Below are positions 12,603-53,734 of a stretch of DNA of 64,000 bases, one piece after another (positions within the stretch are counted from its first letter, which is position 1; each line of letters opens with the position of its first letter). The notes beneath the pieces were generated by a model that ran no database searches, was not told the origin of the DNA, and saw only the letters and a program-made list of their open reading frames with translations. The DNA is taken from contig JADZFO010000011.1 of the NCBI GenBank assembly GCA_020849855.1, positions 7,318 through 71,317 on the forward strand, read 5' to 3'. The stretch comes from a bacterium. Lineage in GTDB: Bacteria > 4484-113 > JAFGCY01. Position numbers and translations under genes: made by a program.

Positions 12603-14714
12603 TTAATCCCAGCGCAGGAAACTGACCGTGCCCACGCCAAAAAATGTGTCGACTCCCGCGATTGAGGCATCACCGCCGCAGACCAGCAGGCTGCTGATTG
12701 AGTCTTCCGAGCCAATCTCGGCCGTCTCCGACCAGCTGTTGGCGAAGGTGTCAAAGCTGTGCAGGTAATAAATCAACTGACCATCATTGAACACGAGCGC
12801 CGGAGTTCCGTTGACGATGGCCGAACTGATCTCATTTGCGCCAAAGGATGCTTCGGCCACGCGCTGGGGCTGATTCCAGTTCAGAAGCAGGGGGTTGTTG
12901 GAGGAGATCTTTTTCATGCCCGGGTCGGTTTCATCCTCATAGACAATGAGCAGAGGACCGGACTCCGACGCGAGGAAGATGTGCGAATCGCCGCCAACAG
13001 CGCCGACGGAGTCAAGCACCTGGCGACTGCCCCAGGCGCTGCCGTCGGCATCCGTAGCCTCGATGAACAGGAGGTCCTGATCTGTCTGGTGCGTGTAGGA
13101 GATCACCGGGCGGTCGCCGAGCGGGAAAAGGCACTGGTTGAGTCCGACCAGGCCGTCGCTGTCCAGCACCTGATGCGCCGGCCAGGCCAGGCCGGATGCG
13201 TCATTGGAGCGGATATAGCGCAGCTCATCACTGCTGAGGCTCAGGTAGGCTATGGCCGGCCGGCCGTTGATGACCCGCAGACTGGGCCGGTAGCCCGTCT
13301 GGCCGGTGCTGTCCAGCGTAAGCGGTGCGGCCCAGACGCTTCCCGTGCTGGTGGTCGCGCGGACGTAGTTGAGGTCGAAGCTGCTCAGGTTGCAGAAACT
13401 TATGGCCGGCACGCCGTTCACGACTTCCAGATCAATGTCGCCAGGCTCCACGCCGCCCGCGGCGGTGACCTGCGCGCCCCAGGTCTGGCCCAGGGGGTCG
13501 AGCGCCCGGATATAGATCAGCATGTTCTGATCATTGTCGGCGTATACCAGCGCCGGATTGCCCTGTACCATCGCCAGCTCGACGCTGTTAAGCTGGCCGC
13601 TGGTCGCTACTGTCTGCGGGGCGACAGAGACCCTGACTTTTGAGCTGTCGAGGGCTTGATTCCCCGCGCTGTCGGTCACGCGCAGGCCCAGAGTGAAGTC
13701 GCCGATGTAAGGATACAGATGCTGCACCTGCGGCTGCTGGCTGCTGCTGTCCCAGCTCCCATCACCGTTGAAGTCCCATTCATAAAGAACGATGCTGTCA
13801 CCGGGGTCGCCGCCGGCATTGCTGTTATCTGCATCGGTATTCAGCGTATAGGGAGCAAAGCCGCCCAGGCTGATGCTGTCACTGATCACCGCCTCGGGCG
13901 GGTTGTTGCCCGGCAGGGTCACATTGATTTCCACACTGGCGCTGGCGCGCTCGCCCTCGCTGTCCTCCACCGCCACCGTTGCGTTGAAGATCCCGGGCAG
14001 TTGATAGACATGGCTGAATACTGGTTCGAAGGTGGTCAGCTCAAAGCCGCCGTCACCTTCAAAGTCCCAGAGATAGCGCTCGATGCCGCCTTCGGGGTCC
14101 GCGCTGCCGCTGGCATCAAACTGCACCGCCAGAGGCGCGTCGCCGCCGGCTATGTCGGCCTGCAGGTCCGCGCTGGGCGCGGCATTGCTGTGGAAGGCGA
14201 GCAGCTTCAGCCGGCTGATGTCCGCGCTGGCGCCGCCGCTGGCCAGGGCGGCGGCATACATCAGGCCGCCGGGGGAGCTGTGGCGCAGGGGGTCAAGCTG
14301 CAGCACGGCCCCGGTACCGCCAGGCGCCAGCAGCTCCCAGCGTCCGCTGCTGAAGTCAGCCAGAGCCAGATGGACTTCGCCTGCTGCAACACTTGCGCTT
14401 AGATCAAAGTCCAGATAGCGCAGCTCATCCTGCGCGGGCAGCTCCCAGATGGCCCAGGCCAGTTCGCCTTCGGCGGAACTCAGGGTCAGCAGCGATCCAT
14501 CAGCGCTGGCCAGAGGGCTGCGGCTGAAGGTCTGCGAGCCGTCCAGCTCAGTACTCAGCAGGCCGCCAGCGCGGCGGCCCGCAGGCAGATCCGGCAGGCC
14601 GGCCGGGTCAGCGGCGGTCCCCATGGCCTGCTGAGCACCCTCGCCGGGCTCGGCACTGCAGGCCACACAGGCCAGGCAGAGCAGCACAAGAAGAATCAGC
14701 GGCAGGGCTTTCAT
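12603..14714 (-). CDS. Lipoprotein: shared N-terminal module, two PKD domains, C-terminal beta-propeller-like repeats
   Basis: Lipobox CVAC; PKD signatures FDASGSADPEGGIERYLWDFEGDG and IVLYEWDFNGDG; repeats such as VNGVPAISF, INGRPAIAY. SD GGAG before MKALP. Confidence 0.85.
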   Translation of the reverse strand: MKALPLILLVLLCLACVACSAEPGEGAQQAMGTAADPAGLPDLPAGRRAGGLLSTELDGSQTFSRSPLASADGSLLTLSSAEGELAWAIWELPAQDELRYLDFDLSASVAAGEVHLALADFSSGRWELLAPGGTGAVLQLDPLRHSSPGGLMYAAALASGGASADISRLKLLAFHSNAAPSADLQADIAGGDAPLAVQFDASGSADPEGGIERYLWDFEGDGGFELTTFEPVFSHVYQLPGIFNATVAVEDSEGERASASVEINVTLPGNNPPEAVISDSISLGGFAPYTLNTDADNSNAGGDPGDSIVLYEWDFNGDGSWDSSSQQPQVQHLYPYIGDFTLGLRVTDSAGNQALDSSKVRVSVAPQTVATSGQLNSVELAMVQGNPALVYADNDQNMLIYIRALDPLGQTWGAQVTAAGGVEPGDIDLEVVNGVPAISFCNLSSFDLNYVRATTSTGSVWAAPLTLDSTGQTGYRPSLRVINGRPAIAYLSLSSDELRYIRSNDASGLAWPAHQVLDSDGLVGLNQCLFPLGDRPVISYTHQTDQDLLFIEATDADGSAWGSRQVLDSVGAVGGDSHIFLASESGPLLIVYEDETDPGMKKISSNNPLLLNWNQPQRVAEASFGANEISSAIVNGTPALVFNDGQLIYYLHSFDTFANSWSETAEIGSEDSISSLLVCGGDASIAGVDTFFGVGTVSFLRWD

Positions 14715-14953
14715 GTTGCGCTCCGGTCCAGATCTGAACAGGTGGATTCTAACCCGCTGCAATGCGGATTCACGAAAGCGCAGCGGAATCGCGGCACTTG
14801 AGGCCTGCAAAAGCCGGCGTGAACGCAGCGCAGGCTTGAAACGACTTAAAGTACAATGGCGGACTCAGGCGGAATATGCGGATAAGGGGACTTCGGGGCA
14901 ACGCGCCGCTGCGTGGCTGCGCCCTGAACACAGCTGGGCGGGCGCTGCGGACC

Positions 14954-17842
14954 ATGGGGTGCGCGGCATTTTCACGCGGCATCGCCCTGCTGCTGGCGGC
15001 CCTGCTGGGCCTGCCTCTGCTGAGCCTGCCCGCCGCGGCTGTGGAATGGCAGAACTACCTTGAGGATGACTTCGAATCCAGCGAAAGCATGTTCTATACC
15101 GGCCAGGCCGGTGAAGCCCAGTACAGCATTGATGAGGAAGAAGGCCGTTATGTGATCGACGGCCTCGAGAGCGGCTCGGACAGCCTGTCGGCCCTGACCG
15201 ACAGCATGTATTACTACTACGTACAGTCCGAGTGCCAGGTGCTGGAGAGCACCGCCGGCGATCTGGCCTTCTGCGGCATCGTCTTCCACTACCACAAGCT
15301 GGGTGACGGCCGCCTGGCCTACTATGTCTTTTATACCTATGGCGACGGCTACTACGGCGCCAAGCGCGTCATCGGCACGGATGTTGAGATCCTGCTGCCG
15401 CTGAAGAAGACCGACCTGTTCAACCCTGACGGTTACAGCAACACCCTGGCGGTGGACGCCCAGGGCACGCGCTTCAACCTATACATCAACGGCGACTATG
15501 TTGATGGTTTCACCGACATGCAGGTTGACGGCGGCGGCTTTGGCTTCTATGTCTCCAAGAACAGCCGGGGCTCCTTCGACAACTTTAAGGTCAAGACCGA
15601 GAAGCGCGGCGGCTCCAAGCGCGATGAGGATGAACCCTCGGTGGCCGACGACGGCGCCGAGGACGAAGGCCCGGGCCGCCCTGCGCGCGGCTACTTCGGC
15701 GGCTATGAGCCACCGGAGATTCCCAAAGACCCCGAGCGCCCGCTGTACCCCTGGGAAGTCGGCTACGACAAGAGCTACCGCAAGAAAGTGCAGGACGCAA
15801 AGGAGCGCGAGGGCGAAGATGGCCGGGGCGCAGACCCTGACGACGCTGATTACATCCCGGACGAGAGCCCGATAAAGCCGGTGCCCGAGGATGAAGACAG
15901 CGCGGAGCCGGACGAAGAAGACAAGGACAAGAGCGAGAAGCGCAGCGCCCGGCCCGAGAAGAAGCCCCGCAAAGAAACGGACGAGAAGCGCAGCGACAGC
16001 CCGGACAAGCCCGCGGGCCGCGAGCTGCCGGAGTCTGGCGATCCCCCTGCCGAGCAGGATGAGGAGCCTTCCGGCCGCAAGGCCAAAGGCGGGCGTCTGA
16101 AGCCCACCGACGGCTTCCGGGAAACCGGCGGGCCGCTGGCCCCGGCCGAGGGGATGCCCGAGAGCACCCGGCAGGTGCGCCCGCCCCAGAAGGGTGACAA
16201 GGCCCCCGCCGAGCTGCAGGATGAGCAGGCGCAGGACGAGGAAACGCAGAGCGATGAAGACGCAGGCCTGGAGCTGCCCTCGGAGTCAGGCGACAGCGCT
16301 GCGGACGGGGATGCAGAGGCGGGCGCAGAGGACGAGGCCAGCCTGAGCAGTCCGCTGGCTGCCGAGGGTGGCCAGCCGATGGTGCGCCCTGAGCCGCATG
16401 CCGGCGGGGAAGCCGAGGGGGCGGAGTCGCCGGATAAAAGTGCTTCGGATGCTGAGGCCGCTGGCGAAGATGCAGGCGCGGCTGAGGCTGAGCCTACGGA
16501 TGAAGCAGAGCAGCAGCTGGAGATGAAGCCGGAGCTGCCCAGCCGCGGCAAGCCCAAGGGCAAGGATAAAGGCAAGCCCAAGGGCAAGCAGAAGGGCCGC
16601 GCGAAGGAAAAGGGCAGCGCGGGCAAGGGCGCCGGAGACAAGCAGGCTGCTGAGCCGGAGAAGACCAGCCAGGCGGCCGACGACAGCGCAAAGGCTGAAG
16701 AAACAGCGCCTGCGGACAAGAACGAAAAACCCGCAGAGAACGCTTCCCGCCAGAGCCGCCAGGGTCTGAAGACCGGCGGCGACGACTGGGACAGTGGCAA
16801 TGCCAGGACAGTGCCCGCTGAGCAACTGCGCCCGAAGCAGAAGCAGCAGGACAAGAAGCAGGAAGAGCCGGTTGACGAGAACGCCGGCGAGTCCCGCCCG
16901 CCCGCGGCGGATGAAGAGCCCGCAAAGCAGGCTGATGCAGCACAGCCGGATGAAGCAGGCAGCGAAGAGACTGCGCTGCAGGAACTGGCGGAAGCTCAGC
17001 CGGAGGCGGATGCCGAGGGCCTCGACGGCTTTGCCGGACAGCAACAGGACCTGGGCCTGCCGGATAGCAGCGGCGAAGGCAGCAACAGCCTGGAAACTGA
17101 TTCAGCTTCTGAAAGTGAGATGCCCGCGGATGAGGCAGCCCTGCTGACAGATGAAGCGGCGGACGCTGGCGGGACGGAAAGCGCTGGCGCGGATGACCCG
17201 CTGCAGAAGCAGGCGCGGCCGCCGGCGCGGGAGCTGCCCGGCGAGCAGCCGGAGCTGGAGAGCGGCGCCATGAAGCACTCCCTGCTGCTGGATTATGTGA
17301 ATGTCTCGACCGTGCAGGACGACTTCAGCCAGCAGCGCTGGCCGGTCGCCGATAACGACAGCTCGGCCTATCGCTACAGCGACGGCGCCTATGAGCTGGA
17401 TAACCTGGCGGCGCAGACCATGGCGATCTCCTACCAGCAGGACAGCTTTGTGGACTGCGAGCTGAGCTGCGATGTGAGCTTCCTGGGCGGCGAGACCGCC
17501 GTGGGCTATGGCCTGGCCGGGCGCTTCATGCTTGAGGAAGGCGCGGTCAGCTATTACGCGCTGTTTGTCTCCTCCTCCGGCGAAGTGCTGTTGCTGAAGG
17601 TGCTGCGCGGCGAGGAAATCGTGCTCAGCGACTGGCAGCCCTGCCCTGCCCTGCTGCAGGGGGAGGCCAACCGCCTGAGCCTGGAGCTGGTGGGCAACAC
17701 GATCCGCGCCAGTGTGAACGGCGAGCTGGCCCTGCAGGTTGAGGACGGGGATATCTCCGTCGGCGGCTATGCCCTGCTGGCCGGTCCCGGAGTGGCGGCG
17801 AGCTATGACAACCTGCTGCTGCGTGGCGTGCGGGCGCAGTAG
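14954..17842 (+). CDS. Large secreted protein: two DUF1080/ConA-like beta-sandwich domains joined by a ~600-aa acidic disordered linker
   Basis: Signal LLLAALLGLPLLSLPAAA; terminal domains share DDF...Y...G.Y...YY.F...G...N.L.....G......+NG...D....GG...+DN. Start could be 14876. Confidence 0.75.
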   Translation: MGCAAFSRGIALLLAALLGLPLLSLPAAAVEWQNYLEDDFESSESMFYTGQAGEAQYSIDEEEGRYVIDGLESGSDSLSALTDSMYYYYVQSECQVLESTAGDLAFCGIVFHYHKLGDGRLAYYVFYTYGDGYYGAKRVIGTDVEILLPLKKTDLFNPDGYSNTLAVDAQGTRFNLYINGDYVDGFTDMQVDGGGFGFYVSKNSRGSFDNFKVKTEKRGGSKRDEDEPSVADDGAEDEGPGRPARGYFGGYEPPEIPKDPERPLYPWEVGYDKSYRKKVQDAKEREGEDGRGADPDDADYIPDESPIKPVPEDEDSAEPDEEDKDKSEKRSARPEKKPRKETDEKRSDSPDKPAGRELPESGDPPAEQDEEPSGRKAKGGRLKPTDGFRETGGPLAPAEGMPESTRQVRPPQKGDKAPAELQDEQAQDEETQSDEDAGLELPSESGDSAADGDAEAGAEDEASLSSPLAAEGGQPMVRPEPHAGGEAEGAESPDKSASDAEAAGEDAGAAEAEPTDEAEQQLEMKPELPSRGKPKGKDKGKPKGKQKGRAKEKGSAGKGAGDKQAAEPEKTSQAADDSAKAEETAPADKNEKPAENASRQSRQGLKTGGDDWDSGNARTVPAEQLRPKQKQQDKKQEEPVDENAGESRPPAADEEPAKQADAAQPDEAGSEETALQELAEAQPEADAEGLDGFAGQQQDLGLPDSSGEGSNSLETDSASESEMPADEAALLTDEAADAGGTESAGADDPLQKQARPPARELPGEQPELESGAMKHSLLLDYVNVSTVQDDFSQQRWPVADNDSSAYRYSDGAYELDNLAAQTMAISYQQDSFVDCELSCDVSFLGGETAVGYGLAGRFMLEEGAVSYYALFVSSSGEVLLLKVLRGEEIVLSDWQPCPALLQGEANRLSLELVGNTIRASVNGELALQVEDGDISVGGYALLAGPGVAASYDNLLLRGVRAQ

Positions 17843-19419: not shown

Positions 19420-21585
19420 ATGCAGCCCTTTTGCCCTGTGTCTTCCGTATCACGCCTGCGCCTGCCCGCGGGCCTCCTGCTGCTGGGCCTTACGGCCGCG
19501 CTTGCTTTGCTGGCCGCCTGCGGCCGCGCCTCGGCGGGTCAGCTTGAGCCGGGCCTGCAGACAGCGCCTGCGGCTTTTGCCAGCCTGGGCCTGCCAGGCC
19601 CGGACAGCCTGCTGCGCAGCGCCAGCGCTTATCCGGCCCTGCGCCTGGGCAGCCAGCATCTGCCGCAGACCGGGGCGGGCCTGCAGTACAGCGGCTACAG
19701 CGCAGTGCTGAGCCCGCAGCCGGGACAGGGCATGGATGGCCTGGCCTGGGCTGTCTATGGCTTCAACGCCGAGGGGTTGGGCGGCAACCTGAACCTCAGC
19801 TACGGCTTCGAGCCGGGTATGACCGGCGCGGCGCAGGATTTCTGGCTGGCGGTGGCCAACTTCAGCCAGCAGCGCTGGGACTGGCACAGCGCGGTTCCAT
19901 CCGGCGCCCTGAGCCTGAACGCGAACACGAACCTGCAGGACGGCCAGGCTCTTGTTGTGCTGGCCTTTCGCGGCAGCGCGCCCTGGCAGCTCAACTGGGT
20001 GCGCCTGGGGCCCGCCGGGCCCTCGCCGCATGACGTGATCACCGCCGGCTGCAGCAGCGTGCTTGGCGGCCACTACATCAGCCGCTCGACCTGTGACAAC
20101 CCCAGCTTTGAGCCCCTGCTCTGGGCCAGCCAGGACGGCATCGGCGGCGACAAGCTGGGCCTGCAGCGCACGCAGCCCGTGCCGGGCTGGGCCGGCTATC
20201 ACTATGACGGCCGCGTTCTCTTCTGGTCCGGGCATGAGGGCTTCTGGGGCACTGGCAACGACGCTAAGGGCGACAATGATCTCTTCCGCACCCAGGCGCT
20301 ACGCTGGCTGCTGGACGGCGGAACGAAGGTGCTGTGCCTGCGCAGCCATGGCGGCGGGCCGGACAGCAGTGGCTTCAGCGCGGCGGTCAAGGCCGCGCTG
20401 GCCGGCGAGGGCGTGAGCTTCACAGACAGCAATGCGGCTCCGACGGCCGAGCTGCTGGCGGAATACGACCTGGTTTACATCGGCCATGGCGACAGCTATA
20501 CGCCGGAGGAAGTGGACACCGTGATGGCCTGGCTGGAGGCTGGCGGCAGTCTGTTGCTGGCGGCTCAGGGCTGGGTCTGGAGCGGCGAGGAACTGCCGCT
20601 GCATCCGCTGAACCAGTTCGGCGCGCGCTTTGGCTGCTGGATCAGCAACGGCCTGCTCAGCGATGCCTCGGCGCCTAATGGACAGGCCGATACGCCAAAC
20701 TTTGCCGTCGCGCCGCTGAGCGAGTACAAGCCCGCGCGGGTGATCGTGCTGCGCACTAGCGAGACGGATGTGAACACGGTAAAGGAGCTGGCCGCAGCCA
20801 GCCCGAACGATATCTACGTTGTTGAGGGCCAGCACATGGGCCTGCAGCTCCTGAGCAGCGACTGGCCGCTGCTAAACGACCCCCTGGCCACGATCAACAC
20901 ACTGGACCAGATGTACCTGGAGCAGGTGGCGATGGTTGGAGACCAGAACCGGCCCTACGGCGGCGAGCTGACCTGGATCATTACCCAGCATGCGCCATCA
21001 GCCGGCTGGTACATGCACTCCGGCAACCCGATCGTGATCCAGGACTATGCCTCGGGGGATCTGGTGCAGAGCTTTAATGACCATGGCCATCCGGGCTGGG
21101 GCCTGCCGCATGAGCACGGCCACAACATGCACCTCTCAGCCTGCGCATACCTCTTCGGCGCGGACGCGGTCGAACCCTGCGCGAACATCTGGAGCGTGCG
21201 CACCTTTGAGCGCATGGGCTGGGACCTGAACCAGAGCGGGCATCCGGACTACTACCAGGCCGGCTATGACTATCACTATGCGCCAACGCAGAACTACAGC
21301 GATGTGCAGGCCAGCGCCTGGATCTGGCTGGGCCTGCTGGACCTGATCTGGAAGAAGTATGGCTGGGAGGGCATGGAGAGCTTCCTGGCTGAGGCGGCAC
21401 TCGACGCCAAGAACGGCGTCACAGCGCCGGACGACGCTTTCCGCACGGCCTATCTGGTGGAGGGGCTCAGCGCGGCCTACAGCCTGGACTTCAGCCCCCT
21501 GTTTGACCATTGGGACTTCCCGTTGACGGATGCCACCAGGGCGGCGACGGATGTGTATCCCGACGCCGAAATTCCCTGGAACTAA
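19420..21585 (+). CDS. Lipoprotein with shared N-terminal module and C-terminal M60-like (enhancin-type) zinc metallopeptidase domain
   Basis: Lipobox LAAC; gluzincin LPHEHGH followed 16 aa later by E (EPCANIWS); MHSGNPI motif. Confidence 0.75.
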   Translation: MQPFCPVSSVSRLRLPAGLLLLGLTAALALLAACGRASAGQLEPGLQTAPAAFASLGLPGPDSLLRSASAYPALRLGSQHLPQTGAGLQYSGYSAVLSPQPGQGMDGLAWAVYGFNAEGLGGNLNLSYGFEPGMTGAAQDFWLAVANFSQQRWDWHSAVPSGALSLNANTNLQDGQALVVLAFRGSAPWQLNWVRLGPAGPSPHDVITAGCSSVLGGHYISRSTCDNPSFEPLLWASQDGIGGDKLGLQRTQPVPGWAGYHYDGRVLFWSGHEGFWGTGNDAKGDNDLFRTQALRWLLDGGTKVLCLRSHGGGPDSSGFSAAVKAALAGEGVSFTDSNAAPTAELLAEYDLVYIGHGDSYTPEEVDTVMAWLEAGGSLLLAAQGWVWSGEELPLHPLNQFGARFGCWISNGLLSDASAPNGQADTPNFAVAPLSEYKPARVIVLRTSETDVNTVKELAAASPNDIYVVEGQHMGLQLLSSDWPLLNDPLATINTLDQMYLEQVAMVGDQNRPYGGELTWIITQHAPSAGWYMHSGNPIVIQDYASGDLVQSFNDHGHPGWGLPHEHGHNMHLSACAYLFGADAVEPCANIWSVRTFERMGWDLNQSGHPDYYQAGYDYHYAPTQNYSDVQASAWIWLGLLDLIWKKYGWEGMESFLAEAALDAKNGVTAPDDAFRTAYLVEGLSAAYSLDFSPLFDHWDFPLTDATRAATDVYPDAEIPWN

Positions 21586-21609: not shown

Positions 21610-24600
21610 GTGGCGCGGCTTGGGCTGATAACTGGTCCGGCGGGTTCCGGCAAGACAGAGCTGGTGCTCAATGAGGCGGCCCAGGCATCCCTGGACCAGC
21701 CTCTGGGCCCGCCGCTGCTGATCATTGTCCCGGAGCAGCAGGGCGTGCAGACCGAGCGAGCCGCCCTGCAGCGCATCGCGCGCCTGCGCGGCAGCGCTGA
21801 CGGGACTGCTGCCAGCTCGAGGATCCGCGTGCTCAGCCTCAGCCGGCTGGCGCGATTGCTGGAGGAGCGCAGTGGCCGGCACAGCCAGCCCCTGAGCGAG
21901 CTGCAGCGCCGCCTGCTGGTCTGGCGCCTGCTGGAGCCTGGCCGAGAGCGCGAGGCCCGTGCGCAGGTCTATTCGGACCTGCTGGCAGAGCTGGCCCTGT
22001 GGCAGACCCGCCCGGAAGAGCTGGAACAGTGCAGCGCGCAGCTTTCGCTGCAGGCCGCTGCGGCCGCCGAGCTGCCCCTGCGCCAGAAGCTGGAGCAGCT
22101 TTCCGCCAAGCTGAGCACCCTGGCTGCGCTGCAGCGGCGCTATATCGCTGCCTGCGAGGCCCAGGGCCTGGATTTCCGGCCGGCCCCGGCGCGGATACCC
22201 GAACTGCTGAGTGAGGAGAACTGGCCCGGGCTGAGCCGCACGCGGGTCTGGGTCGACGGTTTTGCCGGCTTCACGCCGGCTGAGGAAAGCGCTCTGCAGG
22301 CCCTGCTGAAACACTGCGAGAGCGTCAGCGCCACAGTGCTGCTGGACCCGCGGCGGCGCTACGGGCCGCTGGAGTCGGATACCCGCGACTGGTACGCGCC
22401 CGGGCGAGCCCTGCTGGAGCGCTGGCAGCTGCTGGCCCAGCGCAGCGCGGCGGCGCAGACACAGCTGCTTGAGCTGCCCCAGCCGCAGGCCTGGCCCCCG
22501 GGGCACCCCCTGGGGCAGCTGGCGCTGGAGCTGCCGCAGGCTGGCATGCGCATCGCCGCGGCGGAGCAGGATGAGATCCTGGCCGTGGCCTGCGCGGACG
22601 AACGCCAGGAGGTTGAAGCGGCGGCCCAGCATATCCGCGAGCTGCTGCTGCCGCCGGAGTCCGGCGGACGGGGCATCCCGGCGGGGCGGATATCAGTGGT
22701 GCTGCGCAGTGTGGAGCACTATGCCCCGCTGATCCGCAACATCTTTCACGACTATGAGATTCCCTTCTTTCTGGACCAGCGCCGCAGCCTGGCACACCAT
22801 CCCGCGGTGGAGCTGCTGCGCAGCGGCCTGCGTCTGGCACTGGGCCTGGCCGGCCAGGAGGACATAGCGGCGCTGCTGCGCTGCGGCCTGCTGCCGGCGC
22901 CGGAGGATGAAAGCCTGCGCGCGGCGGCCGACGCCTTGCTGGCCTATGCGCGGCGACACGGCCTGCGACCGGGGCTGTGGCTCAGCGACAGCGACTGGCG
23001 CTTCAGCGGCGGCCTGCTGGGCTCCGAGGAGAGCCTTGACGATGAGCGCCTGAGACAGCGCGAGGAAAGCCTGGCGCGGCTGAACGCCTGGCGCCGGAAG
23101 ATCCTGGCGCCGATAGCCGCGCTCTCACGGCGGCTGAGGGGGCTGGAGCGGCCGCGGCTTCGGGAGCTGCTGGCCTGCGCCTGGGAAGAGCTCTTCAGCG
23201 CGGCGACGGCGCAGCAGATGGAAAGCTGGGCCCTGCAGGCGCAGCAGCGCTCGGCTGGCAGCGGCCGTGAAGCCTCCTACATGGGGGACAAGGCGCAGCT
23301 GCACCGGGCGGTATGGCCTGCGCTGGCCGCGCTGCTTGACGCGCTGGATGCCGTCGCCGGCGAAGAGCGCATGGAACCGGCGGAGGTTTGCGCCTGGCTG
23401 GAGGCCGGCCTGGCGGCGCTGGATACCGGCTTCCCCCCGCCTCTGCTGGACACAGTGCTGGTGACGCAGATTGACCGCGGCCGCCACGGGAGCGTGGATG
23501 CGACCCTGCTGCTGGGACTGAGCGAGGACCTGTGGCCGCCGGCCCAGGCGGAGTCCGCGCTGTTCTCCGACCTTGAGCGCGAGCTGATCAACGCGGGCCC
23601 GGAGGGCGGCGGCGACAGCGATATGCAGCTGCTGGCGGCCGGTGCGCGCCAGCAGGCCCAGCGCGAACCCTGGTTCTTCCTGGTAGCCATCACCCGCCCG
23701 GCCCGGCACCTGTATCTCAGCCGGCCGGCATCCTCAGCGGATGGCCAGCTGCGCCCGGCATCGGCATATCTGCGCGCGCTGCTGGACAGCATCGGCCTGC
23801 AGGAGCGCGGGGCAGAGCAGCTTTGCGCCGAGCGCCTGGAACGCGGCAGCCTGTATCTGCCGCCGGCGGAACTGGCCGCGCGCCTGGCCGGCGCGGAGCC
23901 CGGGCTGTTATCCGCGCTGCCGCAGCTTGAGCGGCTGCTGCTGGCGCAGGCGCCGGACGCGCTGAGCGCGGTGCGCTGGTCGCAGGCCGAGTATCAGCGC
24001 CGCGGCCAGCCCCTGCCGCTGGACGCGCCGACACTGGAGCTGCTCTTCCAGCGCACAGGCCAGACCCGCCTGCGGGCCAGTGCCTCCCAGCTTGAGGCCT
24101 TCGCGCTCTGCCCCTTCCGGCACTACAGCCGCTACCTGCTGCGCCTCAGTGAGGAACAGCCGCCGCTATTTGACGCCCGCACCATGGGCTCCTTCTACCA
24201 CAGCCTCTTTGAGGGCCTCGTGCGGCGTCTGCAGGTGAGCGCGGCACAGGAAAGCTGGGCGGCCATCGACAGCGAGCGGATTGAAGCCGAGGCCGCCGAA
24301 GTGCTGAGCGAGCTTGGCGCGGTGCTGAAACTTGAAACGGACTATCAGCGGATTGACTTCCTGCTGCTGCGCGCGCGCGCCATCCTGGCCCAGCATGCGC
24401 AGCTCCTGGCCGCGATGCTGGCCGAGGGCCGTGTGCCCCTGGCGGCGGAGCTGGCCTTTGGCGAGCAGCCCGGCAGTCAGCTGCCGCCCCTGCGCCTGGA
24501 CTTCCCCGGCGGCGAGCTGCTGCTCTCGGGCAAGATTGACCGCCTGGACCGCGACAGTCAGGGCCAGGCCAGTGTGGTGGACTACAAACTGGGGCAGCGC

Positions 24601-25131
24601 AGCTTCAAGGACATGCAGCTGCTGGCCGGCGCCCAGATCCAGATGTATGTGTATCTGCTGGCCCTGGCCCAGGGGGAGGCCGGCCGCCGGCCCGCCCAGC
24701 TTGAGCTGGAGCTGCGGCCCCACAGCGCCTGCTATCAGAGTATCGAGCCGAGCTGGGCCGATTCAGGGCTGAAGCTGAACGCCAGCCAGCGTGAGCTGGC
24801 CTCGGCTGAGGATGGCGAGTGGGAAGCAGCATCGCGCGCCGGCGCGGCGCAGAAGCTGCGTCCCAGCCTGGAGCTGGTGCGGCGCCTGCTGAGCGGCATT
24901 GCCGCCGATATCGCTTCCGGCTCGCTGGCGGTCAGCCCGCTACGCGACGGGCCGCAGTGGCGGGCCTGCAGCAGCTGCGACTTCCGCAGCGTCTGCCGTT
25001 TCGACCCGCTGAGCCAGGGCCAGTACCGCAGCACGGAGACTGTCGCCAGGCGCAACCTGCAGCGCAGCGGCCTGAATCCCCGGGAGCTGGCCCGCGAGGG
25101 CTTAGCCCGCCCGCGGGGAGGCGGCCGATGA
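21610..25131 (+). CDS. addB: ATP-dependent helicase/nuclease subunit B (AddB/RexB-like)
   Basis: GPAGSGKT, SASQLEAFALCPF, GKIDRLD..VVDYK nuclease motif, Fe-S ligands C...CSSCDFRSVC. Confidence 0.9.
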   Translation: MARLGLITGPAGSGKTELVLNEAAQASLDQPLGPPLLIIVPEQQGVQTERAALQRIARLRGSADGTAASSRIRVLSLSRLARLLEERSGRHSQPLSELQRRLLVWRLLEPGREREARAQVYSDLLAELALWQTRPEELEQCSAQLSLQAAAAAELPLRQKLEQLSAKLSTLAALQRRYIAACEAQGLDFRPAPARIPELLSEENWPGLSRTRVWVDGFAGFTPAEESALQALLKHCESVSATVLLDPRRRYGPLESDTRDWYAPGRALLERWQLLAQRSAAAQTQLLELPQPQAWPPGHPLGQLALELPQAGMRIAAAEQDEILAVACADERQEVEAAAQHIRELLLPPESGGRGIPAGRISVVLRSVEHYAPLIRNIFHDYEIPFFLDQRRSLAHHPAVELLRSGLRLALGLAGQEDIAALLRCGLLPAPEDESLRAAADALLAYARRHGLRPGLWLSDSDWRFSGGLLGSEESLDDERLRQREESLARLNAWRRKILAPIAALSRRLRGLERPRLRELLACAWEELFSAATAQQMESWALQAQQRSAGSGREASYMGDKAQLHRAVWPALAALLDALDAVAGEERMEPAEVCAWLEAGLAALDTGFPPPLLDTVLVTQIDRGRHGSVDATLLLGLSEDLWPPAQAESALFSDLERELINAGPEGGGDSDMQLLAAGARQQAQREPWFFLVAITRPARHLYLSRPASSADGQLRPASAYLRALLDSIGLQERGAEQLCAERLERGSLYLPPAELAARLAGAEPGLLSALPQLERLLLAQAPDALSAVRWSQAEYQRRGQPLPLDAPTLELLFQRTGQTRLRASASQLEAFALCPFRHYSRYLLRLSEEQPPLFDARTMGSFYHSLFEGLVRRLQVSAAQESWAAIDSERIEAEAAEVLSELGAVLKLETDYQRIDFLLLRARAILAQHAQLLAAMLAEGRVPLAAELAFGEQPGSQLPPLRLDFPGGELLLSGKIDRLDRDSQGQASVVDYKLGQRSFKDMQLLAGAQIQMYVYLLALAQGEAGRRPAQLELELRPHSACYQSIEPSWADSGLKLNASQRELASAEDGEWEAASRAGAAQKLRPSLELVRRLLSGIAADIASGSLAVSPLRDGPQWRACSSCDFRSVCRFDPLSQGQYRSTETVARRNLQRSGLNPRELAREGLARPRGGGR

Positions 25132-29144: not shown

Positions 29145-29258
29145 GCCGGTGCTGGCTAAGCCCGCATCATCCCTCCGCAAAGACAGAGGAAAGGGCGGGA
29201 TTGCCTCCGACCTGATGGTTCAAGTTAGCTGCGGGCGGTGCCTCAGTAAGTTTGCAGT

Positions 29259-30023
29259 TCAATCAGGATGCCGAACTGCATCTCCACCGTAGTAGGTGAA
29301 AACATCCCTGAAAAGCACCTCGTTAGCCTGCTCGCCATAGGCGGTGACTTGGATCGCACCGCTGAGGGGCATTCCCTCGCTTGGGGTACTCAACAGCAGT
29401 TCTCCGGACTCCAGGTTTCGAATCTCATCCTCTGTCAAGGCTCGGAAATCCAGCGCCAGTGGAGCCCAGGCTGAGCTTTCAAATGACGTGTAGTACTTGC
29501 CTGTCAGCGGGTCAATGCTGTAAAGGGCCTGACACAGTTGAGTTCGCGCGTCACTATTCTTGAATTGCTCCCAAGAACTGCCATCAGTAAACCTTGCACT
29601 AAGTAGATCGGCCCCATCTTTGGGCATTACGCCATGTGCGAAGTAGTACTGGCCAACATAGTGGGCAGTAGTTGGGAGCGAAGCAGTAGTCTGTCCGCAT
29701 AGAACGGCACCCAGTCGCTTCAGGTCCTTTGGGCTCAGCTCCGACGAAACTACCTGCTTGCCTTCGCATCTGCGGTACTCGTCCAGCAGCGAACGCGCGG
29801 AGTCAGGCATGGAGGCCTGAGACGAAGCCAGTGTGTGGATAGTGACTTGTTCCGCGAAATTGGCTTCCAAGTCTGAGCTGACCAAGGCCTGCCTTATCTT
29901 CGCTGCGGAATAAACGTACTGGCGGTCGTTGACCTGCTGAGCAGACTCGGAATTGACGCAGCCAGTCAGTGCTTGCAGCAACCCGAACAGTAGTGAGCAG
30001 GCAAGAAGAGAATCGCGAATCAT
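29259..30023 (-). CDS. Hypothetical lipoprotein (island paralog B)
   Basis: Lipobox LTGC; lower GC; shares blocks with 30606-31409. Confidence 0.7.
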   Translation of the reverse strand: MIRDSLLACSLLFGLLQALTGCVNSESAQQVNDRQYVYSAAKIRQALVSSDLEANFAEQVTIHTLASSQASMPDSARSLLDEYRRCEGKQVVSSELSPKDLKRLGAVLCGQTTASLPTTAHYVGQYYFAHGVMPKDGADLLSARFTDGSSWEQFKNSDARTQLCQALYSIDPLTGKYYTSFESSAWAPLALDFRALTEDEIRNLESGELLLSTPSEGMPLSGAIQVTAYGEQANEVLFRDVFTYYGGDAVRHPD

Positions 30024-39072: not shown

Positions 39073-41001
39073 TTAGTCGAGCGGCACAGTGCGGGCGATC
39101 AATGCTTCGCTGCTGGCCGCGGTCTCAAAGAGGTCCAGATCCCCTGCGGCATCCACAAGTTCACTGGCGCTTTGATCAATCAGCTGGCTTTGCGTAAGCA
39201 CTGTGAGCGTATCGCCTGAGTCAACCAGACTGACGATGCCGGAGTAGTCTTCAGTAGTCAGGTCGGTACCGCGGTTGATTGTCGGCTGGGCGTCGGCCAG
39301 TGTCAGGGCGTCACCCAGACAGAAAAAGGACCCACAGTCCTCCAGGAAACTGAAGTAGAGCACGCCGAAGGTCAGCCATTCCTGTGGACTGGCATCAACT
39401 CTGCTCAGGCGGATAAAGCCGCTTTCTGTACCCTCACCCGCATCGCTGCGGGTCTGCACAAGCAGGTCGCCATTAGTGAAGCGCTCCGTCATCAGGCGTG
39501 TTTCAAGAGACACACTCGACCGTGGTGTGAGCAGCTTCTGGGCTGAAAGCAGAGCGCCGCTGCGGTCACTGCGTACGAGCAGGACGCCATCATCGAAGGA
39601 CGAGACATCCTGCCGTGGCACTGCGCTGGCGCTAACCATGTTTCCTGCTTCGTCGTAGGCCACTCCATTTTCAGAGAAGGTCAGGCTGAAGGAGAGGCTT
39701 GAGTCGAGATACTTGTCAAAGAGAACCTGGCCCGTCGAGTCAAGGCGCAGCAAGCTCGGGGTGCCCATGGAGGGCGGGTCAAAGGCACTACGGTGCCCGA
39801 CCAGCAGCAGGTCGCCTGTCGTCGGCTCGGAAATGATGCGGCGATACAGGGGCCGGTGGCTGGCGACCGCCCAGTTATGCTGCAGTTCCCGGACCAGGTT
39901 GCCATCCGGAGAAAGCCAGACCAGCGCCCCATAGTCATCCGGGTCTGATAGCACGTCATTTGACACAACAACATGGACCACCAGATTGCCGTCAGCGTCA
40001 AAGCCCAGGCCGCCCACGCTCTCTGTGCCTGCTGTGTCCCAGCGCCGGCACCAGACCGTGTTCAGGTCTGAGTCAGCCTTCATGATGAAGGCCTTGCGTG
40101 AGCTGCCAGCGGTGTAGGCCAGGTAGACATCGCCAGCCGCGTTGACGAGCATCTCCCTGATGCCAAGTTGAGAGCCAAACAGCTCAGGGTCAGTCCACTG
40201 GCGGGCGACCAGCAGGGTGCCGTCCTGGGAGAACTTGAGGATCGACGGCGTGACTTCGTCGCTGAGCGCCTCGGAGTCAATCGACACATACAGATTGCCC
40301 TCCGCATCCATCCCGCAGAAGCGGCCATCCTCAGACGCTGAGGTGCCCCAGCTGTGCGCCCAGTTCAGGGTCTCGCCATTGTGCTGGATGCTGACGCTGT
40401 TTACCGTCAACGCTGAGCCATAGGCAAGCACGGCAACATGCATCAGGCAGCTGTCTGAGGACAGATCTTCAGCGGGGCGATCTACTGTCAGGCTGGCGCT
40501 GTCGCTTAGAAGCGGCGCAATCTTCCAGTTGCCCGCCGAGTAATCGCTCAGGCCGATCCAGAACTGCTGCGGCTCCGCAGCGCTGCAGTCGATGCTGACA
40601 CTGGCAAGCTGCGCGCCATGCGGGACGGTGAAGGAATAGATGCCATAGCTCAGTTCATCCGTGCCCGGGGTCAGCTGCAGGGAAGTGCCATCCAGAGCCT
40701 GGGGCCCTGCGGAGCGGCTGAAGTCTGCACCGCTCAGGCTGCCGACCGCGGAGACTGCATGCGATTGGCCTTCAAGCGCTGTCAGGGCGGGGAGGCCATC
40801 GCGAACTGGCCGCGCTGCACTTCCGGAGGGCGCATTGGAAGTCGTCGTCTGCTCCGCGTAGCGCGCGGCACCGCCAGAGGCGCAGGCAGCCAGGCCGAGC
40901 ACACTGGCTGCGGTGGCAAGTGTGCACAGAATCAACGACATGCAGTGGTGCTTCGACAAGCTAACCCCCGATAACGCAAGCTGGAACTCTGAGCTGCACA
41001 C
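39073..41001 (-). CDS. Lipoprotein: shared N-terminal module plus beta-propeller (SBBP-like) repeats
   Basis: Lipobox LAAC; repeats D..GN+Y+...K....G..+W. Start may be 40941. Confidence 0.72.
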   Translation of the reverse strand: MCSSEFQLALSGVSLSKHHCMSLILCTLATAASVLGLAACASGGAARYAEQTTTSNAPSGSAARPVRDGLPALTALEGQSHAVSAVGSLSGADFSRSAGPQALDGTSLQLTPGTDELSYGIYSFTVPHGAQLASVSIDCSAAEPQQFWIGLSDYSAGNWKIAPLLSDSASLTVDRPAEDLSSDSCLMHVAVLAYGSALTVNSVSIQHNGETLNWAHSWGTSASEDGRFCGMDAEGNLYVSIDSEALSDEVTPSILKFSQDGTLLVARQWTDPELFGSQLGIREMLVNAAGDVYLAYTAGSSRKAFIMKADSDLNTVWCRRWDTAGTESVGGLGFDADGNLVVHVVVSNDVLSDPDDYGALVWLSPDGNLVRELQHNWAVASHRPLYRRIISEPTTGDLLLVGHRSAFDPPSMGTPSLLRLDSTGQVLFDKYLDSSLSFSLTFSENGVAYDEAGNMVSASAVPRQDVSSFDDGVLLVRSDRSGALLSAQKLLTPRSSVSLETRLMTERFTNGDLLVQTRSDAGEGTESGFIRLSRVDASPQEWLTFGVLYFSFLEDCGSFFCLGDALTLADAQPTINRGTDLTTEDYSGIVSLVDSGDTLTVLTQSQLIDQSASELVDAAGDLDLFETAASSEALIARTVPLD

Positions 41002-43474: not shown

Positions 43475-46400
43475 TCAGAGGGTGCTGCGGCACAGGACGC
43501 GGTCGCTGGCGGGATCGTGATAAATCAGATGCCAGCGGCCATCGACCCCGGCGGTGATGACCGCGCGGTTGATGCTGCCAAGGCCGCCGGGCAGCGGCAG
43601 CTCTTCAAACTTCCCAAAGTCACTCCATTCAAGGTACTGCTCGCGGCCGTCCAGGCTGGTGATCACCGCCACCGCAGTGGGGCCGGCGACTGTATAGGCG
43701 CTGACTGTCCGGCGCAGCTCCTGCCTGTAAAAGTCGCTCAGGTCGGACTCGAAAGGAATGATGGAGCTGTGGTCACCGTTAACGTCTGGGAACAGATAGC
43801 GCTGCGGTGAAGTGGTGTTGCCCATGCTGGTGTAGTAGACCTGGTCATAGCTGGATACCAGGCTGAAGATGAGTCCAGGCGCCGCCCCGCCCAGACACCA
43901 GGCGGTGGCAAAACTCTGGCCGCGGACAGAGTCGCTTGTCATCGGGTCGTTGGGTGGGTTGCCCGGCGGCGGGAAGGCCCAGTTGTTGTTGGTGCCGTTC
44001 TCCATCCAGGAGGTGTAGCCGACATTGGGACCCAGCAGTCCGCCGCCGTTGCTGAAGCTGTAGAAGTTGAAGAACTCATCTGAGCCGGTGACCGCGCCGT
44101 CCCAGAGGGGCAGCAGATCCGGGCTGGTGCTGTAGCTGCTGAATGTCCCTGTACTGCCGGTGGCGATCTGCAGGTCCCCGGGGATAGAGTCGTCGTAATG
44201 CAGCCAGACATGCGTATCACTGGTGGGGTCATCGCTGAGGATCGGATGGTGTTCAGGCTGCCCGCTGGCCAGCAGCTCGCCGTTGAAACTGCGCGCCACC
44301 TGATCCCAGCTTGAGAGGCCATGCCCGATGGCGGAAGCGGCGGTGATCAGGACTTCGCCGTCTTTTCCGCTGCCGAGGTCAAAGTAGGGCACATAGGTCT
44401 CATCCACCTCCTGGACCCAGGTCTGTGTGTCCGCTGAACTCATGTGCCGGGTCAGGTAGGCGTAGCTGGTCCACATCGCGTGCAGGCCGTCACCACCGAA
44501 GACGGCCTGCAGGTTCTGGCCCTGGCCCTCGATGGAGACAATCTGCGTCACCGGCGAATCGCCGCCGCCAAGATCAAGGCCCAGGACGTTGAAGCTGTTG
44601 TTCAGGTCCTCGCAAATGACCATAACCTGCGCGGGCCCGGAGGGGCAGAACTGGAAGTATCCGTAGTCCGACTTCATCTGGGCCGGCGCGGACACCGGGC
44701 TGCTGCCGGCCGTGCTCACCTGGTGCAGGCTGACCTGGTCGCCGCTGTTGGCCCGGGTCAGGCACAGGGCCGTGCCGTCGCTGAGGAACTCCAGCCGGCA
44801 CTCCTGGCCATTGTCGGCGCTGTCGTCAACGACCAGCGGGCTGCTCCAGACAGCGGCATCATTCCTCTCGCTGAAGCGGCAGCGTGCCGACGGCAGTGTT
44901 GTGTAATAGACCACGGCGGCCCGGCCGCTGTCCGGGTTGACCTCCAGGTCCAGCCCGCCCAGCGCAAGCGTATCCGGGCTGATCACGCTGGACGGGCCCA
45001 CGGTGCCATCCAGTGGGTTGAACTCATAGTTCAGGGTGCCGACGGGCAGGCTGAGGGCCAGCTCGATCCTTTCCGTTACGGGGTTGAACTCCGCATCGAT
45101 GGCGGTCAGGCTGCCAATTCCGGGCACCGGGTCTGTAATCATTGAAAGCGCCCCGCTGAGCAGGCCGAGGCGGCTGGCCCGCACATTTATGTCCGGGCCG
45201 TCGACAACCGTGAAGAACAGCCAGGCATTGCCTCCGCCGTCTTCGGCTAGCGCGCAGGGTGCAAAGGGCGGCGGGGCCGGAGAGCTGAGAGCACCGGGAT
45301 TCGCCACATCCATGAACTCGCCCTCGCCCTTACCGCCATTGGCCAGCGGATCCCAGATCAGGACCAGGTTGCTGGCCTGATTGCTCACTGGTACCAGAAC
45401 ACGCTCCTGGACAAAGCTGCCGTCGCTTTGCTGCTGATAAACGCTGAACATGGCCTGGCTGATGTCATAACCCACGATACTCAGCAGGCCCGTGGCGGGG
45501 TTCCTGACGATCTGCGGTTTGAAGAGGCGTGGAATGAGGGTGCTGAGGTTCTGCTCGGGCTCACGTACCACCACTGAACTTGATTCCCAGCGCGGATAAA
45601 CCTTGACCTCAAAGCTTTGGCGGCTGAAGGAGCCGCTGGAGTCCAGTACCTGCACAGCGATGCGGTGGCAGCCCGCCGGCAGAGTGAGCGTCAGTAGCGG
45701 GTCACTGCCGCTGACCGGGCTGACGCCATAGATGCCAGCGGCGGCGTAGGCGGTGATTGCATCGCCGTCAGGGTCGAAGCAATCACCGAAGTCAAGCTTC
45801 AGGTCATAGGGCGCGTAGTAGCGCCCGTATGGCAGCTTCATGCGGATCACCGGCGGGAGGCTGCTGCCAGAGCTGATGCCGGAGCTTGTGGTCAGCCAGA
45901 TGCTCTGGTTGCCGCTGCTGTCCACGGCGGCCGCGCGCCAGCGGTAAGCTTCGCCGCTGACGGCATCAGGGTCGTGGAACTGCAGGCCAGGATAAACCTC
46001 GGTGGTCACACGAGTGAAGGGTCCACTGAGCAGGGGGGCGCGCTCGATGATGTAGCCGGCGAAGTCCGGATCGCTTTGGCTGGGTGAGGCGTTCAGCCAG
46101 GCCACCGCGCCGTTGTCGCCGGAGATCGGCAGCAGCGATAGCGGCGGCAGGGGCGCATCGTCCCCGCCGCTGACGCCCAGCTCCAGCTTGCGGAGGACGA
46201 TGCCGGGGGCTTCGGGCGCGATGAGCGCGAAGTAGTGCGTGCCATCGGATGCGCAGTAGGCCCGCGGGTCGGTGTAAGGCGTGATGTTGGGAATCTCGAC
46301 TTCAGCATCGCCGTTGAAGGGGCCGGCGAAGACCCAGCGGCCGGCGATGTAGTCGCTGTAAGCCACGAAGTAAGGCCCGGCCGGGGCTTCCAGACTGACC

Positions 46401-46780
46401 TTGAGGCCCGTGGAGAAACTGTCACCATCAAAGCCAAAGGCGCCAAAGACCGCAAAGGCCTCGGCAACCCCGGGCTGCATGGCCAGGTCCCCGTCGGGCT
46501 GGCTTGTGCACTGCGCCGAGCGCAGGCTCAGGGAGGCGGCGATATCCAGCCAGCCGGGGCCGGAAATGGATGCGCTGCGCAGGCCTTCAAGCTGGCTCAG
46601 CGCCGGCAGGCCCTTGAACTGCGGCTGCACCGGCAGGGCGCTGCGCTGGGGCGCTGGCCCCTGAAGCGCAGACAGGGCCGGGTCAGCAGCCGGGCCAAAT
46701 GGGCTGCTGTTGGAACTGCCACAGCCGGACAGGCCCAGCCAGACAGCCAGGAAGAGCAGGACGGGCAGCACAGCGCGCAT
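43475..46780 (-). CDS. Large lipoprotein: shared N-terminal module, FN3-like and PKD-like domains, propeller-like C-region
   Basis: Lipobox LSGC; DFAGYIIER...YRWRAAAVDSSGN (FN3-like); DPDGD.I..Y (PKD-like). SD GGAGG before MRAVLP. Confidence 0.78.
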   Translation of the reverse strand: MRAVLPVLLFLAVWLGLSGCGSSNSSPFGPAADPALSALQGPAPQRSALPVQPQFKGLPALSQLEGLRSASISGPGWLDIAASLSLRSAQCTSQPDGDLAMQPGVAEAFAVFGAFGFDGDSFSTGLKVSLEAPAGPYFVAYSDYIAGRWVFAGPFNGDAEVEIPNITPYTDPRAYCASDGTHYFALIAPEAPGIVLRKLELGVSGGDDAPLPPLSLLPISGDNGAVAWLNASPSQSDPDFAGYIIERAPLLSGPFTRVTTEVYPGLQFHDPDAVSGEAYRWRAAAVDSSGNQSIWLTTSSGISSGSSLPPVIRMKLPYGRYYAPYDLKLDFGDCFDPDGDAITAYAAAGIYGVSPVSGSDPLLTLTLPAGCHRIAVQVLDSSGSFSRQSFEVKVYPRWESSSVVVREPEQNLSTLIPRLFKPQIVRNPATGLLSIVGYDISQAMFSVYQQQSDGSFVQERVLVPVSNQASNLVLIWDPLANGGKGEGEFMDVANPGALSSPAPPPFAPCALAEDGGGNAWLFFTVVDGPDINVRASRLGLLSGALSMITDPVPGIGSLTAIDAEFNPVTERIELALSLPVGTLNYEFNPLDGTVGPSSVISPDTLALGGLDLEVNPDSGRAAVVYYTTLPSARCRFSERNDAAVWSSPLVVDDSADNGQECRLEFLSDGTALCLTRANSGDQVSLHQVSTAGSSPVSAPAQMKSDYGYFQFCPSGPAQVMVICEDLNNSFNVLGLDLGGGDSPVTQIVSIEGQGQNLQAVFGGDGLHAMWTSYAYLTRHMSSADTQTWVQEVDETYVPYFDLGSGKDGEVLITAASAIGHGLSSWDQVARSFNGELLASGQPEHHPILSDDPTSDTHVWLHYDDSIPGDLQIATGSTGTFSSYSTSPDLLPLWDGAVTGSDEFFNFYSFSNGGGLLGPNVGYTSWMENGTNNNWAFPPPGNPPNDPMTSDSVRGQSFATAWCLGGAAPGLIFSLVSSYDQVYYTSMGNTTSPQRYLFPDVNGDHSSIIPFESDLSDFYRQELRRTVSAYTVAGPTAVAVITSLDGREQYLEWSDFGKFEELPLPGGLGSINRAVITAGVDGRWHLIYHDPASDRVLCRSTL

Positions 46781-52621: not shown

Positions 52622-53734
52622 CTAGGGATCCTGGACGGTAATGGGCACACTGATCTCGTCCGACATGCCGCCGTCATCCACCACCAGCAGCCTGACGTTG
52701 TAGTCGCCCGCCTGCTGATAGACGTGGTTGGTGAACTTGGAAGCACCCGTGTCGGCATCGTAGCTGCCGTCGCCGTCAAAGTCCCAGGAGCAGAAGATGA
52801 TGCTGCCGTCGATGTCGCTGCTGCCGCTGCCATCCAGCAGCACCTGCGCGCCGGTCTCGATGTAAGCCGGCTGGATCTCCAGCGCGGCCACCGGCGGCAC
52901 TGTGCCGGCGAGGGTCACCTTGACCAGCTGCTCGGCGATGTCGCTCTCGCCGTTCGCGTCCGTCACCCGCAGCCGGGCGTAGAACCAGCCCGGCTCGCTG
53001 TAGCCGTGGTCCACAGTCGGGTCAGTTCCACTGTCGAGGTCGTAGGTCCCGTCGCCGTCGAAGTCCCACTCATACCTGGCCACCGGAGCATCGAAACACT
53101 GGCTGTTGACCGCGCTGAAGCCGACGCCCAGCGGCGCCTCGCCCTGCGGCGGGTCGGCGCTGAGGATCGCCTCCACCCCGCTGCCGCTGAGCTGCAGCTC
53201 CATGCGGTCAAAGGTGAACAGCGTATCCCGGGGCGTCACTACCGCGAAGACCACATTCTGATCGTCGCTGAGCAGGGGGGCGGGCAGGCTGGCCGAGTAG
53301 CTAAAGGGGCCGTGCCAGCGCCAGACATCATAGGCATAGTCGGCGTAGCCAACCCAGTAGTTGCCGGTGTGGATGCTGCCCGCCTTGAGCTCGATGTCGA
53401 GCCCGCCGATCTGGGCGTTGCCGACCTGGCTGTAGTAGATCGCCCACTCGCGCTTGCTGGACATTGCGCTGAGGCGCATGTCGGTCTCGTCCGGCAGGGG
53501 CTCGGCGCCCAGCGAGAGCATCGTGTAATTCGAGGCCTCGATCAGCTTGCCGACGCTGCCAGAGCTGAGCCTGATTTCGCTGGGCAGCGGCAGGCCGGCG
53601 GCGCTGGTGTTCATGTCTGGCGCGGTCTGGCCGGGGTCCGGACCGGCGGGGCTGCCCAGGGGGGCCTGGCCGCCACTGCAGGCGGCGAGACTGAGCAGAA
53701 GCAGGGTCAATGCGGCGATCCACAAGCGGTGCAT
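52622..53734 (-). CDS. Lipoprotein: shared N-terminal module plus two PKD domains
   Basis: Lipobox LAAC; YEWDFDGDG and CSWDFDGDG; SD GGAGGA before MHRLW. Confidence 0.85.
   Translation of the reverse strand: MHRLWIAALTLLLLSLAACSGGQAPLGSPAGPDPGQTAPDMNTSAAGLPLPSEIRLSSGSVGKLIEASNYTMLSLGAEPLPDETDMRLSAMSSKREWAIYYSQVGNAQIGGLDIELKAGSIHTGNYWVGYADYAYDVWRWHGPFSYSASLPAPLLSDDQNVVFAVVTPRDTLFTFDRMELQLSGSGVEAILSADPPQGEAPLGVGFSAVNSQCFDAPVARYEWDFDGDGTYDLDSGTDPTVDHGYSEPGWFYARLRVTDANGESDIAEQLVKVTLAGTVPPVAALEIQPAYIETGAQVLLDGSGSSDIDGSIIFCSWDFDGDGSYDADTGASKFTNHVYQQAGDYNVRLLVVDDGGMSDEISVPITVQDP

Follow-up and report, generated by a model that had tools for sequence, protein, structure and literature searches.

Five lipoprotein genes in a 64-kb stretch of bacterial DNA (64,000 nucleotides of contig JADZFO010000011.1, hereafter the window) share a module that stands between the N-terminal lipobox region and cargo domains that differ from gene to gene. 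By analogy with described lipoprotein architectures, the likeliest role of this module is that of a membrane-proximal pedestal or adaptor for varied cargo, possibly with ligand-binding capacity, a reading to which we give about an even chance. The window is a chromosomal stretch of 64-66% GC, carrying the housekeeping genes ispG, dxs, addB/addA, topA and dprA together with genes for a transketolase subunit, a ROK kinase and a DegT aminotransferase. Among these lie the five genes, here termed A to E, with a common layout of signal peptide, lipobox Cys, short Ala/Gly/Pro/Ser tether and one module of ~140 amino acids (aa):

12603..14714, minus strand: gene A, a 703-aa lipoprotein with signal peptide and lipobox MKALPLILLVLLCLACVAC (LACVAC), tether, module, two PKD domains and C-terminal repeats
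19420..21585, plus strand: gene B, a 721-aa lipoprotein with lipobox LLAAC (Cys34), tether, module and an M60-like metallopeptidase with an HEHGH motif
39073..40941, minus strand: gene C, a 622-aa lipoprotein with lipobox GLAAC (Cys20), tether, module and a C-terminal region with a weak SBBP-propeller signal
43475..46780, minus strand: gene D, an 1101-aa lipoprotein with lipobox LSGC (Cys20), a longer tether, module and ~890 aa without a Pfam match
52622..53734, minus strand: gene E, a 370-aa lipoprotein with lipobox LAAC (Cys19), tether, module and two PKD domains

In each of the five proteins a signal peptidase II-type lipobox, [LVI][ASTVI][GAS]C, follows a hydrophobic signal peptide, and lipidation of its Cys is accordingly predicted. 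The products of genes A, C, D and E are identical to library proteins P0004, P0001, P0003 and P0002, respectively, and relatives with the architecture of gene D include P0015 and P0091. The C-terminal repeat region of gene A is propeller-like in relatives, of which the close relative P0005 gives a weak BNR_2 match. Over genes C and D, RNA-labelled runs gave no contigs or only a small number at low depth.

The original prediction, made from the window sequence, held that an unrecognised module of ~135 aa follows the lipobox in five different lipoproteins, opening with GLP and containing a WA(I/V)Y-type strand and a (W/F)...W strand. All five open reading frames (ORFs) are real, these motifs are present in the alignments, and both the length and the coordinates given at that time were essentially right: the copies fall inside the boundaries below, which run from GLP to the last alignable sequence and enclose a confidently folded part of ~140 aa.

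14160..14600, minus strand: module copy A, GLPDL...LAWAIW...HLALADFSSGRWEL; leave-one-out E 6.6e-13
19588..20049, plus strand: module copy B, GLPGP...LAWAVY...FWLAVANFSQQRWDW; leave-one-out E 1.7e-7; the most divergent of the five
40345..40797, minus strand: module copy C, GLPALTAL...LSYGIY...FWIGLSDYSAGNWKI; leave-one-out E 1.2e-19; the copy modelled structurally
46136..46612, minus strand: module copy D, GLPALSQL...EAFAVF...YFVAYSDYIAGRWVFAGP; leave-one-out E 2.9e-11
53150..53596, minus strand: module copy E, GLPLPSEI...REWAIY...YWVGYADYAYDVWRWHGP; leave-one-out E 3.6e-17

Since identity to copy C is as low as 19-27% for the other copies, significance was evaluated by leaving one copy out and searching a profile of the remaining four against the 525 ORFs of at least 60 aa that a six-frame translation of the window yields. 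Every copy was recovered, with E-values from 2e-7 to 1e-19, and the best unrelated ORF in these searches reached E ≥ 0.054; the five copies are thus homologous. A failure of the copies to align significantly would have spoken against the original proposal, and no such failure occurred. The residues invariant across the five aligned copies are GLP and the Trp of a (W/F/H)(I/L/V)(G/A)xx(D/N)(Y/F)xxxxW hairpin, and a WA[IV][YW] motif is also seen. A profile search of the window revealed no sixth copy, leaving exactly five.

The module appears from sequence comparison to be an uncatalogued domain family. When the five proteins and 49 module sequences were scanned singly against Pfam-A, the coverage check that had been proposed at the outset, no family matched the module at E ≤ 1; NCBIfam gave no match either, and a profile search of PDB sequences returned nothing better than E 0.02, the weak matches being antibody V domains at chance level. 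Word-indexed protein searches with copy C or with the 49-sequence alignment found no match, though the library used for exhaustive searching contains the family. The public names of relatives follow their cargo ('PKD domain-containing protein', 'PQQ-binding-like beta-propeller repeat protein', 'carboxypeptidase regulatory-like domain-containing protein') or read 'hypothetical protein'.

The extent of the family became apparent in an exhaustive HMMER search, in which the five-copy profile was run against 1.84 billion representative proteins (clusters at 50% identity). It comprises 1,418 protein clusters at E ≤ 1e-3 and 228 at E ≤ 1e-10, and its tie to lipoprotein N-termini, as originally suggested, is real. 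In 149 of the best 150 relatives the module forms a single stretch, starting at about residue 35-70 in nearly all, and no confident double-module protein was found among sampled members. A hydrophobic stretch with a Cys lies upstream of the module in 130 of the 131 relatives with complete N-termini (at least 30 upstream residues), and a loosened lipobox pattern is matched by 119 of the best 150. The tether between Cys and module is rich in Ala, Gly, Pro and Ser and narrowly distributed in length (median 24 residues, interquartile range 20-28), and residue +2 after the Cys is Gly, Ala, Ser or Thr in 95 of 100 sequences and never Asp. A median of 520 residues follows the module, and within the window it is present only in lipoproteins longer than 350 aa. 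The occurrence of five module genes in 64 kb points to a strongly expanded paralogous family.

Hosts of the module were sought in a genome scan with the pattern of the A subfamily; because a single-subfamily pattern was used, the resulting taxonomic range is a lower bound. The scan located six related loci in four metagenome-assembled genomes (MAGs), 'UBP7 HKST-UBA01', 'HK-STAS-UBP7_A-1' (a complete genome of 4.1 Mb, labelled Planctomycetales), 'binchicken_co199_143' and 'AC1.30'. At these loci, too, module genes stand in tandem, with three inside 12 kb in each of L002 and L006 and two in L001. The module proteins looked up at NCBI were all labelled only '[bacterium]', and sequence of the window was found in wastewater, activated-sludge, bioreactor and aquaculture metagenomes. 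The lineage link that had been proposed is supported insofar as the module has so far appeared only in unclassified MAGs, two of them labelled UBP7 or UBP7_A. The small-genome 'UBP7' proper differs from the module-bearing MAGs in GC content and genome size (PMC11382960), and we found nothing in the literature on the biology of the UBP7_A lineage.

The cargo joined to the module is of mutually unrelated kinds, including PKD domains, propellers and an M60 peptidase, as the original prediction had also indicated, and is characteristic of extracytoplasmic proteins. Its individual assignments fared unevenly. Pfam supports the two PKD domains of gene A (PKD_4, E 6e-25) and of gene E (PKD_4, E 1.7e-26) as well as the Peptidase_M60 domain of gene B (30.5 bits against a cut-off of 25.8), while the propeller assigned to gene C corresponds to no more than a sub-threshold match (NCBIfam Lepto_SBBP_lipo, E 0.013). 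The FN3/PKD call for gene D was not borne out, its cargo matching no Pfam family at E ≤ 1 and no NCBIfam family. Across 66 sampled relatives, PKD occurs in 26; propellers of PQQ/BamB, ACSF4, BNR, NHL, SBBP and strictosidine-synthase-like types are found, together with fn3, CarboxypepD_reg, CAP, PPC and a PccH-type cytochrome. No glycoside hydrolase was found in this sample. Among relatives of the same architecture, identity is 41-55% in the module and 36-42% in the cargo for A-type proteins, and 35-43% and 31-36%, respectively, for D-type proteins, suggesting that purifying selection on the module is at least as strong as on the cargo.

The AlphaFold and Foldseek comparison proposed earlier was run on copy C. 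A first AlphaFold2 model from the five sequences (predicted local distance difference test score, pLDDT, of 71.7) gave weak Foldseek matches and was superseded by a model built with the 49-sequence alignment, with pLDDT 91.3 and a predicted template modelling (TM) score of 0.85. The latter model consists almost wholly of beta structure, in ~11 strands, and places the GLP segment confidently inside the domain; its confidence falls after about residue 140. The top Foldseek matches in the PDB are carbohydrate-binding modules (CBMs) of families CBM6, CBM4, CBM61, CBM86, CBM36 and CBM16, along with phloem lectin PP2 and Cry-toxin domain III (probability 1.00, E 4e-5 to 4e-4, TM 0.4-0.6, ~10% identity), and the matches among viral models (BFVD) are to phage tail-fibre, tailspike and minor-tail modules. 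The matches to jelly-roll CBMs lead us to predict a CBM-like β-jelly-roll fold. The galactose-binding-domain-like families CBM6, CBM4, CBM36, CBM61 and CBM86 are the best structural matches, sharing the length of ~130-150 aa and the two-sheet jelly-roll. However, no CBM hidden Markov model (HMM) matches the module, and CBMs are neither locked in position nor linked to a lipobox. The likeness to CBMs is accordingly one of predicted fold only, and by sequence the module belongs to no known family.

The conserved positions, given here in copy C numbering, fall into two groups. Core aromatic and aliphatic residues comprise W51-A-I-Y54, W80, Y120-x-A-V and V132/L137. Loops and hairpin ends carry a second set, comprising L2-P3, a basic residue at position 11 (R11), G23 (97%), D/N85 and Y/F86 (each 100%), R90, W91 (100%), G95-P96 and S114-P-x-G117.

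The closest described case for this arrangement is that of the beta-sandwiches BACON and DUF1735 of Bacteroidota surface lipoproteins, which are phylum-restricted and N-terminal, lie mostly behind a lipoprotein signal peptide, have varied C-termini and were proposed to act as membrane-bound spacers (PMC11216935). For this reason a pedestal or adaptor role is favoured for the module, which has the same placement as BACON: N-terminal, behind a lipoprotein signal peptide, with variable C-termini. BACON (PF13004; BACON_2, PF19190) is a Bacteroidota beta-sandwich, often N-terminal and proposed as a spacer rather than a binder (PMC11216935). In contrast to the module, it is less strictly N-terminal, is lipoprotein-linked in 76% of cases (compared with the 130 of 131 given above) and resides in another host lineage. 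Its fold is immunoglobulin (Ig)-like, as in BoGH5A (3ZMR), and not a CBM-like jelly-roll; no BACON domain is present among the top 50 Foldseek PDB matches, and no HMM match of the module to PF13004 or PF19190 exists at E ≤ 1. DUF1735 (PF08522) occupies the N-terminus of a multimodular protein in 89% of cases and has a lipoprotein signal peptide in 96%; it also resembles the module in its many copies per genome, varied C-termini and proposed spacer role (PMC11216935). Its fold, however, is Ig-like, and it is found almost only in polysaccharide utilization loci beside SusC/D genes. The DUF1735 model gave no match to the module, and the window holds housekeeping genes instead of SusC/D-like neighbours. 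BACON and DUF1735 are thus analogues of the module, judged by architecture, and not its homologues.

Under the pedestal reading, the mature protein would run from a lipidated Cys, exposed once the signal peptide is removed, through a flexible tether of Ala, Gly, Pro and Ser to one module as the first folded domain, and on to variable extracytoplasmic cargo, which the module would hold at a set distance from the lipid anchor. Both the membrane that takes the anchor and the side that the protein faces we infer. The CBM-like fold and the conserved polar and aromatic loop residues suggest that the module is not a passive spacer and probably also touches a constant component of the envelope, such as a glycan. 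The same architectural solution as in BACON and DUF1735 would then have been reached independently, with a different fold and in a different, uncultured lineage. Two observations weigh against so simple a role. A pure spacer needs neither conserved polar loops nor a CBM-type fold, so that a description as spacer only is probably incomplete; and the modules, ~25% identical between cargo subfamilies, track their cargo, a divergence that co-adaptation of each module with its own cargo would explain no less well than would one common partner. The advance lies in a new domain family, comprising 1,418 or more clusters at 50% identity, that would fill a known architectural role, and not in a new mechanism. 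If the reading is true, it would also represent a case of convergence, in which a lineage-restricted N-terminal beta-sandwich between lipid anchor and cargo is a general lipoprotein design and not a Bacteroidota peculiarity. A profile of the module would serve to pick out the probable cell-envelope lipoproteome of these organisms from wastewater, and offer a handle for metaproteomics, for surface-labelling enrichment and for glycan-binding tests.

The predicted fold also raises the possibility that the module is a true carbohydrate- or glycoprotein-binding domain, tethering polymers such as floc exopolymers or mucin-like glycoproteins at the cell surface for the cargo, with its N-terminal position reflecting common descent only. 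We consider this unlikely though credible. Characterised CBMs and glycan-binding modules of phages are the structures that the model most resembles, the family conserves aromatic and polar positions, and the habitat is activated sludge and wastewater. Moreover, M60-like peptidases, one of which is among the cargos, are often paired with glycan-binding domains. However, ordinary CBMs occupy various positions and often occur in several copies, whereas 149 of 150 proteins have the present module once, at the N-terminus. It is matched by no CBM family model, and the cargo of the 66 relatives is dominated by PKD and propeller domains, with glycoside hydrolases absent.

A similarly doubtful proposition is that lipoproteins come to be displayed at the surface by a pathway specific to this lineage, with the module as its element for recognition or anchoring, a folded N-terminal 'address' that would be read by export machinery or locked to an envelope glycan or lattice. 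The original prediction had compared it in this sense to SLH domains and to the C-terminal domain (CTD) of type IX secretion system (T9SS) cargo, which likewise are envelope-targeting modules common to proteins with diverse cargo. The comparison fits poorly. SLH (PF00395) is a wall-polymer-binding domain of a different family whose model does not match the module, and the module model is nearly all beta. The T9SS CTD (PF18962/TIGR04183) is C-terminal and removed on export, unlike the N-terminal module, which has no Pfam or NCBIfam match to it, and no common C-terminal tail was found among the five window proteins. Module proteins, furthermore, already carry a predicted lipid anchor, which would by itself account for membrane attachment.

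A narrower possibility, which we judge improbable, is that the module is a determinant of sorting or export, read by lineage-specific machinery by which lipoproteins are delivered to the surface or kept there. The obligate link to the lipobox, the narrow range of tether lengths and the position of the module as a single first domain are as such a signal might require, as are its restriction in the window to the longer lipoproteins and the few residues that stay invariant across subfamilies otherwise ~25% identical. The original prediction had suggested a search for a co-occurring transporter or partner; no candidate recurs beside the module genes in the window or at the six related loci. To our knowledge, the signals for surface export of lipoproteins are short peptides or C-terminal domains, and not N-terminal folds of 140 aa. 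In addition, an unrelated N-terminal module is found in three genes nearby, of which two have a clear lipobox, and the module studied here is therefore not universal.

It is very unlikely that the modules associate with one another, or with an S-layer-like array, so as to order many different lipoproteins into a surface coat. Although the many paralogues with one shared N-terminal domain, the tandem arrays in relatives and the frequent assembly of jelly-roll domains into viral capsids and tail proteins are consistent with a lattice, the identities of 19-27% to copy C are low for a homotypic interface, and no S-layer protein was identified near module genes. Least probable is a cleavable pro-domain or intramolecular chaperone, removed once the cargo has folded: its removal would leave the cargo without a lipid anchor, and the cargos are for the most part PKD or propeller domains, which are not enzymes. 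The first, low-confidence model gave weak matches to peptidase zymogen pro-regions, but these do not return near the top with the high-confidence model, where an astacin zymogen still stands at rank 27.

Several further features were observed at the related loci and in the window. A gene for an RseP-like site-2 protease, with a HEWGHMMAAKRAG motif, immediately precedes the A-type module gene at three of the related loci:

L002, 4156-5739: RseP-like gene with the HEWGHMMAAKRAG motif
L004, 4135-5706: RseP-like gene with the HEWGHMMAAKRAG motif
L006, 4157-5740: RseP-like gene with the HEWGHMMAAKRAG motif

As a recurring partner this gene was rejected, being absent at the window locus, where the neighbour is dxs; no other neighbour recurs. 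The three neighbouring genes with another N-terminal module, likewise unrecognised, stand in tandem near the end of the window and share ~50% identity over ~200 aa:

55586-58039, plus strand: second-module gene with the shared N-terminal ~200 aa
58700-61414, plus strand: second-module gene with the shared N-terminal ~200 aa
61568-64000, plus strand: second-module gene with the shared N-terminal ~200 aa, running past the window end

The lipobox, clear in two of them, reads LAAC. A relationship between this second module and the one studied here was considered and rejected (hhalign probability 0.1%), and the first ~340 aa of these proteins have no Pfam match at E ≤ 5. The second module is followed by GDYDQNG(V/I)VAVQDLTP(IGINFG), dockerin- or EF-hand-like by eye only, and further downstream by weak CarboxypepD_reg, Big_9 and PKD matches. 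Small lipobox proteins of 133-187 aa, with neither of the two N-terminal modules and no Pfam match, are encoded at 32703-33101, 33167-33727 and 35973-36416, all on the minus strand.

Transcribed divergently from gene A is a gene for a 988-aa secreted protein (14876-17842, plus strand), the N-terminal part of which weakly matches the 3-keto-disaccharide-hydrolase family (LamG-like); its C-terminal end is similar by eye only, and ~600 aa of acidic, Lys- and Pro-rich low-complexity sequence lie between the two. Between genes C and D, 42034-43416 (minus strand) encodes a zinc-ribbon protein that also has ankyrin repeats, and adjoins an endonuclease/exonuclease/phosphatase-family gene at 41090-42037. 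Two very long ORFs on the plus strand, 21610-25131 and 24819-29144, are AddB- and AddA-like by eye and overlap by ~300 nt as listed; translation of the second probably begins downstream of the GTG given for it. In the region 28000-32600, GC content drops to 0.595 from ~0.65 elsewhere, and three consecutive minus-strand ORFs without a Pfam match (29259-31409) adjoin a PilT/T2SSE-type ATPase (31419-32573); this region could be a pilus or secretion cluster, or acquired DNA.

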